This document shows positions 30,992 to 42,576 of a DNA stretch of 64,000 nt, piece after piece. Source of the DNA: an uncultured Clostridia bacterium (GTDB lineage: Bacteria > Bacillota > Clostridia > Christensenellales > Borkfalkiaceae); assembly GCA_934254825.1 (NCBI GenBank), contig CAKQMB010000015.1, positions 1,950-65,949 of the forward strand, in the 5' to 3' direction. The position numbers and the translations under genes were made by a program. Within the stretch, counting starts at the first letter, position 1. Each line of letters opens with the position of its first letter. The notes beneath the pieces were generated by a model. It ran no database searches and had not been told where the DNA came from. It worked only from the letters and a program-made list of their open reading frames with translations.

Positions 30992-32509
30992 ATGAAAAGT
31001 TCTAAAAGAAACATTATCGTTTCGGCGATAATGGTAATCGCGCTCTGCTTCGGCGTTATGGTCGGCGGAACGTATGCGTGGTTCACGGACACGGTGAGCA
31101 GTAACGTATGCAAAGTAGAGTCCGGAACGCTCAAAGTAGATCTCGAAATGCAGAAAGACGACGGATCGTGGGTTTCCGCCAAAGGCGAAACTCTGATGTT
31201 TAAAGTTAACGGAGTAACTCCCGCAGTCGGAACTCCCATTTTGTGGGAACCCGGTTGTACATATGAGCTTCCCGCGCTTCGCGTTGTCAACAAGGGTACT
31301 CTTGCTCTTAAATATAAGGTTGTCATCAACGGTATAAACGGCGACGCTAAGCTCAACGAAGTAATCGTCTGGACTATCGGCGCAAACGCTCTCACCGCAG
31401 ACGTCAAACTTCTTCCGGGCGAGAACAAGGAGTTCACTATCTCGGGTCATATGCTTGAAACCGCAGGCAACGAATATCAGGGTTTGTCTATCGACGGTAT
31501 CGGTATAACCGTACTTGCAACCCAGGTAAGCCACGAAATCGACAGCAAAGACGATACTTATGATTCCGATGCGGATTATCCCGACATTGCTCTCGTGGGA
31601 ACGACCGACGATTTTAAAGACGCTCTCGCGTCCGAAGAAACCGACGGAAAGACTATCAAACTTGCCGACGACATAACAATGCCCGACGAGACTATTGCGA
31701 TTGCCGGCAAAAACATAGCTATCGACCTTAACGGCAACAACATGGATCTCACTCAGATTACGGTTAATAACGCTACCGTAGTTATCAAAGATTCTTCCGA
31801 CAGCGAAGGATCGATTGCGGGTACTTCCGCAGGCGGCGTTATCAATGCTGCGAATTCCGACGTAACGATTGAAGGCGGTAATTTTGTAAGCGGATATGAA
31901 AGAGAAAACAGTAGCGGTTACGCCAACGTTATTACGGTTCGTAACTCCAACCTTACCATTAACGGCGGTTATTTCGAAAACACGGACGCCGTAGGTAGTT
32001 ACAACTACGTTATCAAAGCGCCTTGCTATTCCAAAACGGAAAAAACGACTATCACCATTAACGGCGGCGAGTTCGTTTCCAACAGAGATTACGGTTACAT
32101 TGTCACCGGCGACAGCGACGCGAACGTCGACGTTGTAATAAACGGCGGTAAATTTACCACGAAAGGTAGAAATTCTTATCTGACAAACGTTAAAGGTAAC
32201 GTTGTCGTAAACGATTGTACTTTCGTGGCAGAGGGCAATAACACCGTATTCAATATCCCTGCAAACTCCAAGGTTACCGTTAAAGGCGGAACGTACTCGG
32301 TAAACGAAAATTCTTATTACGATACTTCTCTTGCGGGGTTGATCTTCCACAGAAAGACAAACGGTTGGACGAGTGTCGACGGAACGTTACTTGTAGATCC
32401 TACCGTCGAAGTTAAGGTTAATCAGCCTACTTACGCGGGCTTCATCGCCGAAGGCGCAAGCCAGAGCGCGACTAAGGACGCGGACGGTTACTATATAATC
32501 AAGAGGTAA
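30992..32509 (+). CDS. SipW-cognate-leader TasA-fold N-module fused to a GGxF-rung beta-helix region (505 aa)
   Basis: VMVGGTYAWFTDTVSS..ESGTLKVDL; EPGCTYELPALRVVNKGTLALKYKV; GNEYQGLSIDGIGITVLATQ. Repeated rungs follow: TIEGGNF, TINGGYF, TINGGEF, INGGKF, VKGGTY. Confidence 0.85.
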   Translation: MKSSKRNIIVSAIMVIALCFGVMVGGTYAWFTDTVSSNVCKVESGTLKVDLEMQKDDGSWVSAKGETLMFKVNGVTPAVGTPILWEPGCTYELPALRVVNKGTLALKYKVVINGINGDAKLNEVIVWTIGANALTADVKLLPGENKEFTISGHMLETAGNEYQGLSIDGIGITVLATQVSHEIDSKDDTYDSDADYPDIALVGTTDDFKDALASEETDGKTIKLADDITMPDETIAIAGKNIAIDLNGNNMDLTQITVNNATVVIKDSSDSEGSIAGTSAGGVINAANSDVTIEGGNFVSGYERENSSGYANVITVRNSNLTINGGYFENTDAVGSYNYVIKAPCYSKTEKTTITINGGEFVSNRDYGYIVTGDSDANVDVVINGGKFTTKGRNSYLTNVKGNVVVNDCTFVAEGNNTVFNIPANSKVTVKGGTYSVNENSYYDTSLAGLIFHRKTNGWTSVDGTLLVDPTVEVKVNQPTYAGFIAEGASQSATKDADGYYIIKR

Positions 32510-32623
32510 TCAAAACAGTAAATTTTTTATATGATTGCGGTCGTAAAAGTCAAATCTCCGAAAGGAGAAAGAGAAGTTTTCAACCGCAACCAAAAGCATA
32601 AATTGCCAAGGAGACAATAAAAA

Positions 32624-39642: not shown

Positions 39643-42576
39643 ATGAAAAAGAAAATAATCTTGTCGGCGATCATGTCGATAGCTCTTTGCGTGAGTCTGA
39701 TTGCGGGCGCGACGTTCGCGATTTTCACGTCGGAGAGTAAAGTAAATATCGCCGTCACAAGCGGTAAGGTGGACGTTGTTGCAACGATCGACGAAACGAG
39801 CGTTAAAACAAAACAACTCTATGACACTGAGTATACAGACGGAAAAGATCGTATGTATCAGGGCGAAGTCGAATTCACGGAAAACGGTCTGAAACTTAAC
39901 AAGTTTCTTCCCGGCGACGGAATTAAATTCGATATCGTCGTTAAAAACAACAGCAACGTAGCCGTTAAATATCGCACGGTTATCGGTTGCGACAGCGATA
40001 CCGGTCTTTTCGGCGGTCTTCATTTTTATGTAAACGAAGCGCTTTTCGGCGGTTCCACGGCTGTTTCCGCATACGAGACGATCGAGCCGAATTCCGACGA
40101 CGTAATCGTTTCCGTGATCGTCGAGCTTCCCGAGGAAGCGGGCAACGAATATCAGGATACGTCCTGCACGGTTTATTTTAAAGTAGAAGCAATTCAGGCT
40201 AACGCGACCGTGGAGGAAGTCCCCGCGGACGTTCTTGCGATTTACAGCGCACAGGATCTTAAAAACTTCGCAAAACAGGTAAACGACGGCACGCTCGACG
40301 CTTCGTACAGCGAGATTAAGCTTATGAGCGATATCGACCTCGACGGAGAAAACTGGGCGCCTATCGGCGTTTCCACGGCTCGCGCTTTCAGAGGCGTTTT
40401 CGACGGAAACGGAAAAACCATAAGCAATCTTAAATCGACGAAATATTCTTTCCTTTCGGGATCGGCGGATTATGCTTACGGCGTAGGTCTTTTCGGAAAC
40501 GTCGTTAGCGGAACGGTTAAAAACCTCGTGATCGAAAATGCCGATATCGGCGGGGATTACACGGACGACGGACACGTTCTTTACAGTGCCGTAGGTATCG
40601 TGGCGGGTTACAGCTACGGTGATTCCGTATTCGAAAATATCACGATCAGAAATTCCGCGGTAAAGGCGCAGACGAAAGTCGGCGCGATCGTAGGTCTCAA
40701 CGCGGACGCGAACAAAACGACTAAAATAGTAGATTGTAAAATCGAAAACGTAACGGTTAAGGGTAATTATTCCTATTCGCTCGTTGCGGGGCTTGTTCTC
40801 GGCGGTTCGACTATCGATATGAGCGGCACGACCGTTTCTTCGACTTCCAAAACGGAATATTGGGAATCGGAAATATCCGAGTTCGAAAAAGACGGTTCCG
40901 AGCTTGAAATCGACGGTTATGTCTGGACTTTAAGCGGCGGTGTATACTGGATGCTCGACAATAATAACGCCTGGGCGGTTCAGAGAGGAAACGGCGCGGT
41001 TTTAACCGACGGTTATCTTTACGATTGCGTGGTTTATACAAGCGCGACCGATAAAAAAGAATATCTTTCTTCTGCGAACGGCGAGATTTACGCTTACACG
41101 GCGGCAAACTTGCAGGCAATGTCCGGTAAAGACGAACTTGCAGGCAATACCGTTAAGCTTATGGCGGATATAGACCTTGAAAACGTCGAATGGACGGCGG
41201 TTGCGATCAACAAGCTCACGTTCGACGGCAACAATAAAACTATCCGTAATCTTAACGTTAAGGGTAAAAAGAACGTTGGTCTTTTCGGTACCTCTACGAA
41301 CTGCATTATTAAAAATCTTATCGTAGACGGAGCAAACGTCGAAGGCATAAACCACGTCGCGGTAATCGCGGGTGACGCGCTTTGCGCCAAAATCGAGGGT
41401 TGTACCGTTAAAAACGCCAAAATCGTTGCGAGGACGGCAAAGAACGAAAAAGACGAGGATGACGACGGCGACAAGGCGGCGGCGATAGCGGGTTATCTTT
41501 CCGCAGAACGCGACGCTTGGGTTAAGGATTGCATTGCCGAAAATATCGAAGTAACGGGTTATCGCGATGTCGGCGGTATCGTAGGTTATGCAAATTCTGC
41601 GGCTGTCGTTACGGGCAACAAGGTAAACGGTTTGAAGCTTACTTTGGATAACACCGCAAATTACAAGAATTACACGACGATTGCCCAACACGACGTAAAT
41701 CCGATAATCGGCGAATACAACAACGGAACGCCCGACGACAGCAATACTTACGAAAATTATTCGTTCAGAGAAATGCTTGCGGACGGACTTTATTCCGATG
41801 AAAGTAATTACTATATCGAAAATGCCGACGGACTTATGGCTATGAATGCCGTTTTCCAGAAATTCGGACAGGCTGAGAATATTTATTTCAGCGACAAGTC
41901 CATCAACGTTATGGCGGATATAGACGCAACGGGTTGCGAGTGGGAAACGGTAAATCTTTCGACCAATTCGACGGATAGCAACGGCTTTACTTTCAACGGC
42001 AACAATCATACTATCGCAAATCTTACGATTGCGGGCAAAAACAACACCAATGTCGGAGCCGGTTTATTCAATATGACTTCGAATAACGGTACGGGTACGG
42101 CACCGATTATTAAGGATATTACTTTCGATAACGTAACCGTTAACGCTTCCGGACATTATCATGTAGGCGTTATCTGGGGCGAGTGTTACGGCGACCTGAT
42201 TCTCGAAAACGTTCACGTTAAAAACAGCTCGGTTACGGGACAGTGCAATGTCGGCGGTCTTGTCGGAAGAAACGGCGAAAGAAATAACAAAATCACATTC
42301 AAAGATTGCTCCGTAGAGAATACGAAGGTTACTTCTGTCGGCGGCGGAGATCCCGCAGGCGCTTCGGCGTTCCTCGGAATGGCATGTAAAGTCGGTACGG
42401 CAAGAAATATCGACCTGGTGTTCGAAGGAAACAACGTTGCAACGGGCAACACTTTGGTTTCCGCAGAAGATCACACGGGCGGCGGTATCTACGTTAAGGC
42501 AGAAGTTGTGGGACAAAATTGGGTGTCTGCCGAAGTCGTTGACGAGTTTGAAAATTATAATTCACAATCCGTGTAA
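39643..42576 (+). CDS. SipW-cognate-leader TasA-fold N-module fused to a GLUG-motif repeat region (977 aa)
   Basis: LIAGATFAIFTSESKVNIAVTSGKVDV; LPGDGIKFDIVVKNNSNVAVKYRT; AGNEYQDTSCTVYFKVEAIQ. GLUG-like rungs follow: GVGLFGNVVSGTVKNLVIENADI, VGLFGTSTNCIIKNLIVDGANV, VGGIVGYANSAAVVTGNKV, NVGGLVGRNGE..FKDCSVENTKV. Confidence 0.85.
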   Translation: MKKKIILSAIMSIALCVSLIAGATFAIFTSESKVNIAVTSGKVDVVATIDETSVKTKQLYDTEYTDGKDRMYQGEVEFTENGLKLNKFLPGDGIKFDIVVKNNSNVAVKYRTVIGCDSDTGLFGGLHFYVNEALFGGSTAVSAYETIEPNSDDVIVSVIVELPEEAGNEYQDTSCTVYFKVEAIQANATVEEVPADVLAIYSAQDLKNFAKQVNDGTLDASYSEIKLMSDIDLDGENWAPIGVSTARAFRGVFDGNGKTISNLKSTKYSFLSGSADYAYGVGLFGNVVSGTVKNLVIENADIGGDYTDDGHVLYSAVGIVAGYSYGDSVFENITIRNSAVKAQTKVGAIVGLNADANKTTKIVDCKIENVTVKGNYSYSLVAGLVLGGSTIDMSGTTVSSTSKTEYWESEISEFEKDGSELEIDGYVWTLSGGVYWMLDNNNAWAVQRGNGAVLTDGYLYDCVVYTSATDKKEYLSSANGEIYAYTAANLQAMSGKDELAGNTVKLMADIDLENVEWTAVAINKLTFDGNNKTIRNLNVKGKKNVGLFGTSTNCIIKNLIVDGANVEGINHVAVIAGDALCAKIEGCTVKNAKIVARTAKNEKDEDDDGDKAAAIAGYLSAERDAWVKDCIAENIEVTGYRDVGGIVGYANSAAVVTGNKVNGLKLTLDNTANYKNYTTIAQHDVNPIIGEYNNGTPDDSNTYENYSFREMLADGLYSDESNYYIENADGLMAMNAVFQKFGQAENIYFSDKSINVMADIDATGCEWETVNLSTNSTDSNGFTFNGNNHTIANLTIAGKNNTNVGAGLFNMTSNNGTGTAPIIKDITFDNVTVNASGHYHVGVIWGECYGDLILENVHVKNSSVTGQCNVGGLVGRNGERNNKITFKDCSVENTKVTSVGGGDPAGASAFLGMACKVGTARNIDLVFEGNNVATGNTLVSAEDHTGGGIYVKAEVVGQNWVSAEVVDEFENYNSQSV

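Follow-up and report, generated by a model that had tools for sequence, protein, structure and literature searches.

Near-identical heads on divergent TasA-like paralogs of an uncultured Clostridia bacterium: evidence for purifying selection combined with recurrent gene conversion

Why should the first part of several neighbouring genes stay nearly identical in DNA sequence when the proteins that they encode have otherwise diverged? The question is raised by an array of TasA-like genes in a 64,000-nucleotide (nt) stretch of DNA from an uncultured Clostridia bacterium (GenBank assembly GCA_934254825.1, contig CAKQMB010000015.1, positions 1,950 to 65,949; hereafter, the window). The array occupies positions 27769-42576 of the + strand, on which all features given below lie unless stated otherwise. 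Besides a signal peptidase resembling SipW, it encodes seven TasA-like proteins, of which two are small and five are large paralogs. In each of the large ones, a signal peptide of SipW type precedes a TasA/AbpX-like β-sandwich of ~170 amino acids (aa) and a variable β-solenoid cargo; a ~170-aa domain ending in AGNEYQ...VEAxQA is common to all seven TasA-like proteins. The array is operon-like, and its TasA-like products are putative members of the TasA/AbpX superfamily. A sequence-only reading of the window had noted that the large genes open with one of two conserved 'heads' (leader plus first strand), and had proposed ongoing gene conversion, or recombination that swaps cargo behind a constant head. 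The analysis presented here makes it highly probable that purifying selection and recurrent intra-array gene conversion together keep the heads alike, and that crossovers within the heads also change the cassettes.

The class-1 heads belong to the large genes at 30992..32509 (505 aa; W_505, where W denotes window genes) and 32624..34531 (635 aa; W_635). Their alignment is free of gaps as far as about nt 383, and the earlier count of ~6 mismatches in the first ~190 nt proved exact (nt 5, 8, 21, 102, 147 and 175); the next mismatch is at nt 202, and the first 240 nt contain 11. The class-1 peptide quoted in that reading is likewise correct. Successive 60-nt blocks from the ATG contain 57, 59, 58, 55, 48 and 48 matches in ungapped alignment, and the genes diverge past the shared start as had been described, with identity of ~80% until nt 383 and ~58% after that point. 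Upstream of the ribosome-binding site (RBS) and ATG, identity ends abruptly, with 16/60 and 23/60 matches in two 60-nt blocks. Pairwise BLASTN, which recovered head similarity in both classes, aligned this pair at 82.4% identity over 551 nt, and the whole proteins are 45% identical.

Synonymous divergence (dS), computed in Nei-Gojobori windows along paralog pairs, is not uniform along these genes, but collapses locally in the head. Between 30992 and 32624, dS is 0.08 in codons 1-60 and 0.31 in codons 61-80, and it ranges from 0.4 to saturation beyond codon 80. Class 1 thus carries a clear young tract, at 30992..31231 in one gene and at 32624..32863 in its partner. Furthermore, maximum chi-square tests for recombination placed significant breakpoints in all head pairs, and these were matched in 0/2000 permutations. 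Neither head core recurs elsewhere in the 64-kb window.

The class-2 head, LIAGATFAIFTSESKVNIAVTSGKV(N/K/D)VVATI, is shared by the genes at 34628..36970 (780 aa; W_780), 37164..39497 (777 aa; W_777) and 39643..42576 (977 aa; W_977), as the sequence-only reading had it, and spans 34628..34783, 37164..37311 and 39643..39790. The last two heads are 89% identical over 148 nt in BLASTN comparisons, and the first matches the others at 84% over 125 nt and 83% over 137 nt. The claim that 37164 and 39643 are highly similar stands for a core at nt 55-125 (2 mismatches), but not for nt 1-54 (8 mismatches, mostly synonymous). Correspondingly, dS between these two genes is 0.95 in codons 1-20, drops to 0.15 in codons 21-40 and returns to ≥0.87, up to saturation, beyond codon 40. 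Their shared converted core is about 70-150 nt long, and W_777 and W_977 have in common five synonymous states (GCG, ATT, ACG, GAG and GTC) that are missing from the W_977 orthologs. For 34628 against either other class-2 gene, dS in codons 21-40 is 0.45-0.59. Class-2 similarity is therefore mostly amino-acid-level constraint, to which 37164 and 39643 add a short young core.

Could such constraint account for all of the heads? Under purifying selection alone, SipW recognition and strand fit would constrain the head, and the DNA would stay alike without recombination. Nonsynonymous divergence (dN) is indeed about 0 in all heads, the mature start WFTDTAST.VNKIQ.G.L is a family-wide consensus, and selection alone fits 34628 as well as codons 1-20 of 37164 and 39643, where 19/20 amino acids are the same despite the high dS. 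For class 1 and for the 37164/39643 pair, however, this account is already contradicted, and as a general explanation it is very improbable: synonymous sites are homogenised within genomes and not between them, paralogs share genome-specific amino-acid substitutions, and site patterns in heads and bodies are discordant.

These three observations come from related loci (designated by L numbers), which were fetched by exact-protein look-up and a genome scan. L002 and L003 are syntenic with the window (LeuRS-YitT-PemK-NadE-...-TraX) and share 95-98% identity with one another; in the flanks, identity to the window is 82-84% for L002 and L003 and 86% for L005. The closest species-representative genome among the matches listed is an uncultured Clostridia metagenome-assembled genome, CAKQJE010000022.1, which carries L005. 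Over alignment columns 31-80, W_505 shares 95.3% identity with W_635, and both share only 66-71% with the L002 and L003 genes, whereas from column 131 on W_505 is 70% identical to its orthologs and 58% identical to W_635. Site-pattern (triplet) tests gave the same result, with p values of 1e-4 to 1e-14 overall. The ratio of paralog-like to ortholog-like sites is 51:4 in the head and 41:69 in the body of W_505 (Fisher p = 1e-12), 52:5 and 29:43 in W_635 (p 1e-9), and 11-17:6-7 and 42-44:168 in W_977 (p 2e-4 to 1e-6). Paralogs also share amino acids that are specific to their genome, DTVSSNVCKV...KVD in the window and DEVSSSVCTV...RVG in L002 and L003, and SGSL is found in L003 only. In L004 and L084, both class-1 genes have a signal peptide in common that is private to the locus.

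The pattern extends well beyond these close relatives. Among scored candidates, 6,190 proteins are related at E ≤ 1e-5, and at least 575 stretches in species-representative genomes encode relatives; carriers include the cultured species Yeguia hominis, Lentihominibacter faecis and Brotomerdimonas butyrica. The head set comprised 161 head-bearing genes from 83 loci, with the family-wide comparison made on 35 multi-copy loci. Arrays of 3-7 paralogs typically have one genome-specific signal peptide followed by the consensus mature start, and 94/161 heads begin WFTDTA. The proportion of differing synonymous sites (pS), pooled over 126 pairs of old paralogs at 29 loci that do not belong to the clade of the window, is 0.38 at signal-peptide positions -22 to -12 and 0.29 at -11 to -1; it rises to 0.41 in mature residues 1-12, 0.56 in residues 13-25 and 0.64-0.67 beyond. 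In 48 genes, the nearest head is that of a same-genome paralog but the nearest body is from another genome; the converse holds for 1 gene. At head codons that encode the same amino acid, the same codon is used in 77% of cases within genomes and in 48% between genomes at matched body divergence, with the within-genome value the higher in 21/23 loci. Codon-usage bias is excluded as the cause by the body control, in which the corresponding values are 51% and 47%. Because of this pS drop, the 48:1 discordance and the difference in codon sharing, concerted evolution of the head characterises the whole family and not just the window.

The same comparison bears on a second alternative, in which selection acts on the nucleotides themselves, through a structure in the mRNA or a regulatory element within the 5′ part of the coding sequence. 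A long, imperfect hairpin can be drawn in the class-2 signal-peptide and first-strand coding region, at 37205-37258 and 39684-39737 of the window and at 13177-13296 and 15729-15848 of L005. Class-2 heads of the window and L005 fold into this hairpin with z scores of -3.1 to -5.3, and head windows across the family have a mean z of -1.37, against -0.15 to -0.55 in body windows. However, class-2 heads of L002 and L006 lack the hairpin, RNAalifold gave a covariation term of about 0, the 5′ untranslated regions are unrelated, and synonymous identity between genomes is the same in heads as in bodies (0.48 vs 0.47). Between species, same-codon use in heads is 0.60-0.84 and that in the housekeeping gene NadE 0.75-0.78; since the heads do not exceed housekeeping genes, nucleotide-level selection is not needed. 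The hairpin was rejected as the cause of head similarity because it is not conserved, shows no covariation and leaves between-genome synonymous sites unconstrained, so that an RNA element has only a slim chance of being the explanation.

If heads recombine, the arrays of related strains should differ in their cassettes. Gene number and cargo do differ among the window, L002, L003 and L005, all of them short-read assemblies, so rearrangement variants of the kind that the sequence-only reading had looked to are present. Against five large genes in the window, L002 encodes large proteins of 511, 523, 657 and 684 aa, L003 of 500, 622, 631 and 681 aa, and L005 of 360, 635, 785 and 781 aa together with a head-less remnant of 291 aa. 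L002 and L003 differ in gene set and cargo despite their 95-98% identity otherwise. The 684-aa gene of L002 is a chimera: its upstream 150 nt resemble those of the 631-aa gene of L003 (2 mismatches), with a close match in the signal n-region, and its downstream part resembles the 681-aa gene. In a three-way alignment, the switch point falls inside an ~85-nt head core that the two L003 genes have in common. Such a gene would be the expected product of an unequal crossover between heads that removed a cassette, or of its reciprocal.

Cargo is mosaic in other respects as well. The C-terminus of the 622-aa protein of L003 is like that of the 657-aa protein of L002 (92% at the nt level), and that of W_777 is like that of the 631-aa protein of L003 (55% at the aa level), behind unrelated bodies. 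W_635 and W_780 have an internal module in common (75% over 127 nt), and the 360-aa protein of L005 matches W_505 over 202 aa at 94.6% before becoming different. Residues 1-385 and 485-708 of W_977 align to the same ~230-aa region of the 681- and 684-aa orthologs, which indicates an internal module duplication in its cargo. The L005 remnant, at 18120-18995 of that locus, is an ortholog of 39643-42576 that lies directly after the preceding gene and starts inside the TasA-like domain, in its last strands (VELPEDAGNEYQD...); it may have arisen by deletion or may represent a silent cassette. Window segments 30268-31563 and 35684-39493 are 96% and 94.4% identical to L005, compared with 86% in the flanks, and in these two patches same-codon use is 0.92-0.98, compared with 0.78 in NadE. 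This suggests that array segments were recently exchanged between the window and L005 lineages.

Several considerations weigh against gene conversion on top of selection as the full account. Nearly all of the sequences are short-read metagenome assemblies, and the crossover in the L002 chimera sits in an ~85-nt repeat, at which an assembler mis-join is possible in principle. The tracts are short (70-240 nt), and single events rest on few sites, above all in class 2. The 34628 gene (W_780) has no paralog-like excess in the site-pattern test (p 0.6-1), and its head is ortholog-like. With no conversion signal there, the likeness of this head is due to amino-acid-level purifying selection, and recombination thus does not account for every case of head similarity. 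The earlier proposal of conversion or recombination behind a constant head accordingly holds for class 1 and for 37164/39643, where the dS collapse, the sorting of heads by genome and bodies by ortholog, the in-head crossover and the family-wide signature agree, and fails for 34628. Finally, membership of the TasA superfamily is marginal by score, and fibre formation, SipW cleavage and cargo display are predicted properties of these proteins.

An assembly artefact, in which short-read assemblers collapsed or mis-joined repeated heads, would draw on the first of these points, since the contigs are metagenomic (names in k141 MEGAHIT style and SPAdes style) and the L002 junction lies in an exact repeat. 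The class-1 heads differ at 6-11 positions, and are therefore not collapsed. The window is identical to ENA contig ERZ27287532:k141_312646, and the identical contig is on record in 3 contigs. Independent assemblies and the three cultured isolates named above have the same pattern, and the cargo differences between L002 and L003 are independent of short repeats. Overall, an artefact is unlikely, and its chance is slight in the extreme.

What, then, is the homogenised unit? In Bacillus subtilis TasA, the donor strand is made up of residues 28-38, which come right after the site of SipW cleavage, and residues 39-61 change their arrangement when the fibre assembles (PMC9674648); the sequence-only reading was right to place the donated strand there. 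From the TIGR04088/PF12389 match, cleavage is predicted after A29 in class 1 and after A26 in 37164 and 39643, so that ~49 and 23 conserved residues, respectively, would be kept in the mature protein. By homology, the class-1 tract of about 78 codons would cover the signal peptide, the donor-strand equivalent (predicted at ~31079-31114 in the 30992 head) and the following hinge or first strands, and the class-2 block would cover the signal peptide and 23 mature residues. Models of the monomers show an unstructured segment following the predicted cleavage site (residues 20-44 in the 505-aa protein, 32-40 in the 210-aa small subunit; predicted local distance difference test (pLDDT) score 25-45), which is compatible with a free strand but no proof of one.

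The assignment to TasA itself draws on profiles and models. The TIGR04088 signal (cutoff 19 bits) scores 23.6 in the small subunit at 30312, 19.9 in 30992 and 19.3 in 32624; 34628 is under the cutoff at 16.8. PF12389 (camelysin/TasA; cutoff 22.5 bits) scores 24.3 in 30312, 22.9 in 37164 and 20-21.8 in the others; the match covers the N-terminal ~45 positions of the profile and is found in 37/40 family members. A SipW-dependent-type signal peptide or N-terminal PF12389 segment, one mark of the TasA superfamily, is thus present. A 40-domain profile matched AbpX among solved structures (9sj2_C, E 1.2e-3) ahead of TasA (5of1/8aur, E 0.24-0.3), and a small-subunit profile found nothing useful among PDB sequences. 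The AlphaFold2 model of the 210-aa protein (pLDDT 81.7) has the TasA fibre 8aur_A as its top PDB match in Foldseek (E 5.7e-4, template modelling score 0.40-0.44). That of the 505-aa protein (pLDDT 75) consists of a signal-peptide helix (residues 7-19), an unstructured segment (20-44, pLDDT about 25), a β-sandwich (~45-180), a linker (181-197) and a β-solenoid (198-505, pLDDT mostly about 80-96). As a full model it has weak matches only, such as the archaeal bundling pilin 7ueg_A (E 0.015), the Lactobacillus reuteri SRRP adhesin, pectate lyase and chaperone-usher pilins. For the β-sandwich core, these matches agree with a TasA-type relationship but are marginal. By homology, the proteins would be cut by SipW after the conserved Ala, would polymerise through donor strands and would present their cargo on a fibre.

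On this basis, the two head classes had been suggested to define two polymerisation-compatibility groups: class-1 and class-2 strands would fit different acceptor grooves, and compatibility within each group would drive homogenisation. Judged by protein identity among the large paralogs (36-45% within a class, 23-32% across), the head classes correspond to two old body subfamilies. The small subunit at 30312..30944 (head LFSDSV...) is closer to class 1, as had been claimed, with BLASTP scores of 44 and 40 bits to class 1 and 37 and 32 bits to class 2, and has the motif GTYA-xF-D...GTLxV in common with it. Class 1 (W-F-T-D) and the small subunit (L-F-S-D) fit the AbpX rule of an acid at position 4, whereas class 2 (I-F-T-S-E) does not. 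Both classes and a small LF(S/T)D-type head recur in the distant L006 (CAVJMJ010000011.1; LWTD small type, WFTD and LFTS). This contig is labelled Parasutterella excrementihominis, a Gram-negative betaproteobacterium, and is probably a mis-binned Firmicute contig. The coincidence of class with subfamily, and the recurrence in L006, are compatible with compatibility groups but do not show them.

Other evidence runs the opposite way. Most other genomes use one head type for 3-7 paralogs, and family-wide pS is lowest in the signal peptide rather than in the mature strand. A metagenome scan with the class-2 core yielded only 2 loci, of which L084 was the informative one. L084 encodes two class-1 genes, at 3234-4781 and 4907-6607, with an identical private signal peptide (VIVSAITIIALCFSIMVGGTYA|WFTS); position 4 after the predicted cleavage site is Ser and not Asp, and the predicted donor strands differ straight after it. 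As L084 is homogenised in the signal peptide only, it argues that the homogenised unit is not specifically the donor strand; together with the pS minimum, it suggests that the centre of the unit is the signal peptide with its cleavage site, and not the donor strand by itself. Two orthogonal compatibility groups are thus a tentative idea, and a rather unlikely one.

Selection joined by gene conversion leads to the following proposal for how the heads evolve. Constraint on the head, imposed by one peptidase and one or two acceptor types, would preserve stretches of nucleotide identity, and these would permit homologous recombination, presumably of RecA type, between tandem direct repeats. Non-reciprocal exchange in short tracts would homogenise the heads, making paralogous heads within a genome more alike than orthologous heads between genomes. 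Conversion tracts would be limited on the 5′ side by the end of homology at the RBS and start codon and on the 3′ side by rising divergence, and would fade over about 70-240 nt. Because all heads are direct repeats, reciprocal exchange would delete, duplicate or fuse cassettes, reassorting 5′ regions and cargo between strains, and homogenisation would in turn sustain the substrate for recombination. The proposal builds on direct observations of sequence patterns, of phylogenies that disagree between head and body, and of the recombinant junction.

A programmed cassette system of the pilE/pilS or vlsE type was considered and rejected. Each of the five large genes comes with an RBS, an ATG and a complete signal peptide of its own; the window has neither orphan heads nor head-less copies, and among the relatives a single head-less remnant occurs, in L005. 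No recombinase turned up among the array neighbours examined, up- or downstream, and the head repeats are direct and not inverted. Lacking a dedicated recombinase, inverted repeats and silent cassettes, the array is not a programmed system of this kind.

A more far-reaching interpretation would make the TasA-like fibres of gut Clostridia modular display scaffolds for interchangeable β-solenoid adhesin or enzyme cargo. A standard plug (SipW signal plus donor strand) would be kept uniform by conversion for compatibility with a single peptidase and fibre, and would double as the recombination handle by which cassettes are shuffled, deleted or imported between genes and lineages; two orthogonal plugs, class 1 with W-F-T-D and class 2 with I-F-T-S-E, would serve two separate fibre systems. 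Taken as a whole, this interpretation is doubtful.

The remaining genes of the array are smaller. A sigma-70-like promoter match at 27625..27653 (TTGACA-17-TATAAT, 12/12, with a TG extension), a consensus match only, precedes the first gene, which encodes a small TasA-like protein of 177 aa (27769..28302). This protein is kept in L002, L003 and L005, where its gene is also directly upstream of the peptidase gene. It had no Pfam or NCBIfam match in profile searches, and its N-terminus has RRK followed by ~20 hydrophobic residues and lacks the SipW motif A|xF (Ala|x-Phe); it may be a membrane-anchored, acceptor-only base subunit. The signal peptidase of type I (28307..29212, 301 aa) matches the SipW model NF046067 at E 2e-20 and 73 bits (equivalog cutoff 190) and TIGR02228 at 47.9 bits (cutoff 51.85), and on these scores would be a SipW-like relative, not a SipW equivalog. 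It is followed by a membrane protein of unknown family (29483..30175, 230 aa), conserved among syntenic loci, and by the 210-aa small subunit. At the far end of the array, W_977 has a pectate-lyase-like, putatively adhesive cargo (PF20585, 28.9 bits).

Upstream neighbours are LeuRS, YitT, PemK and NadE with a helix-turn-helix (HTH), and downstream neighbours are TraX, AraC, a Listeria-Bacteroides-repeat protein and an ABC permease. The PemK-family toxin gene and the NAD synthetase with its N-terminal HTH lie directly upstream of the array, at 24659-27344 (converted from 3668-6353 of L001), and the repeat protein, of 1649 aa with seven Listeria-Bacteroides repeats, lies downstream at 48606-53555. 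Codon-aligned reverse-frame open reading frames of 461-663 aa run antisense to the large genes on the - strand (30965-32350, 32510-34084, 34898-36859 and 37584-39575). They were rejected as evidence for antisense genes, since they are explained by how rarely the sense genes use the codons TTA, CTA and TCA (0-3, 0 and 0-1 per gene, respectively).

Most of what is known of TasA-type fibres comes from Bacillus biofilms and archaeal bundling pili. The family described here, which is large, occurs in gut Clostridia, cultured species included, and carries the TasA-like domain fused to large adhesin-like cargo in 3-7 copies. Concerted evolution of heads together with cassette crossover offers a concrete mechanism by which repertoires could diversify while staying assembly-competent, and predicts strain-level variation in the surface adhesins of abundant gut commensals. 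The cultured carriers provide experimentally tractable organisms for tests of the mechanism.

How does this compare with known systems? Adhesin paralogs of the Helicobacter pylori Hop family (babA/babB/babC and sabA/sabB) have near-identical 5′ (and 3′) segments around divergent middle or functional regions, and intragenomic gene conversion among bab and sab genes yields chimeras and alters the adhesin repertoire. The Hop proteins, however, are outer-membrane β-barrels of a Gram-negative species, encoded at dispersed loci, and their conserved segments are not known to act as a polymerisation strand. In the present array, with its genes in tandem, crossovers also lead to loss or duplication of cassettes. 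Neisseria pilE/pilS pairs a conserved N-terminal secretion and polymerisation module with a variable C-terminal part diversified by gene conversion. The pilS copies are silent and lack the 5′ end, and the mechanism is programmed and dependent on a guanine quadruplex; here, in contrast, each copy has an RBS, a start codon and a signal peptide, and conversion homogenises the conserved head instead of importing the variable part.

The chaperone-usher tip adhesins FimH and PapG, like the array proteins, have a donor-strand-complemented, pilin-type β-sandwich fused to an adhesive domain. Foldseek matches to the PapG pilin domain, FimG and CfaB reach a probability of up to 1.0 with weak E values (1e-3 to 1e-1). 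The likeness is in fold only; the secretion and assembly machinery is unrelated, and the adhesin domain of FimH and PapG is N-terminal.

By homology, the tapA-sipW-tasA locus of B. subtilis is nearer (PMC9674648): in the window, a SipW-like peptidase adjoins its putative substrates, which have a signal peptide of TIGR04088 type. Also alike are the N-terminal sequence (F-x-D ... SGTL) and the small-subunit model, a β-sandwich that has the TasA fibre as its best PDB match. Differences are that whole-domain similarity to TasA is marginal (E 0.24), that the peptidase here is under the SipW equivalog cutoff, and that two substrates are replaced by seven paralogs, five with C-terminal β-solenoid extensions of 300-770 aa. 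AbpX-like loci of Bacillota encode a type I signal peptidase, minor subunits and predicted tip proteins (bioRxiv 10.64898/2026.01.04.697558), and this clade gives the best sequence-profile match to a solved structure over the whole domain (9sj2_C). The AbpX-associated peptidase is described with ten transmembrane helices, whereas that of the window is a 301-aa SipW-like protein, and class 2 lacks the AbpX position-4 acid. The AbpX preprint reports no head recombination or concerted evolution (bioRxiv 10.64898/2026.01.04.697558), and in the literature searched no paper pairs SipW with gene conversion or describes concerted evolution of TasA heads. The closest systems are thus TapA-SipW-TasA and AbpX-like loci by function and homology, and adhesin paralogs with conserved ends and pilins with a conserved N-terminal module by mechanism. 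The evolutionary process itself is known; what the literature searched does not describe for TasA-type systems is its action on a module of secretion signal plus predicted donor strand, here in a little-studied fibre-adhesin family.

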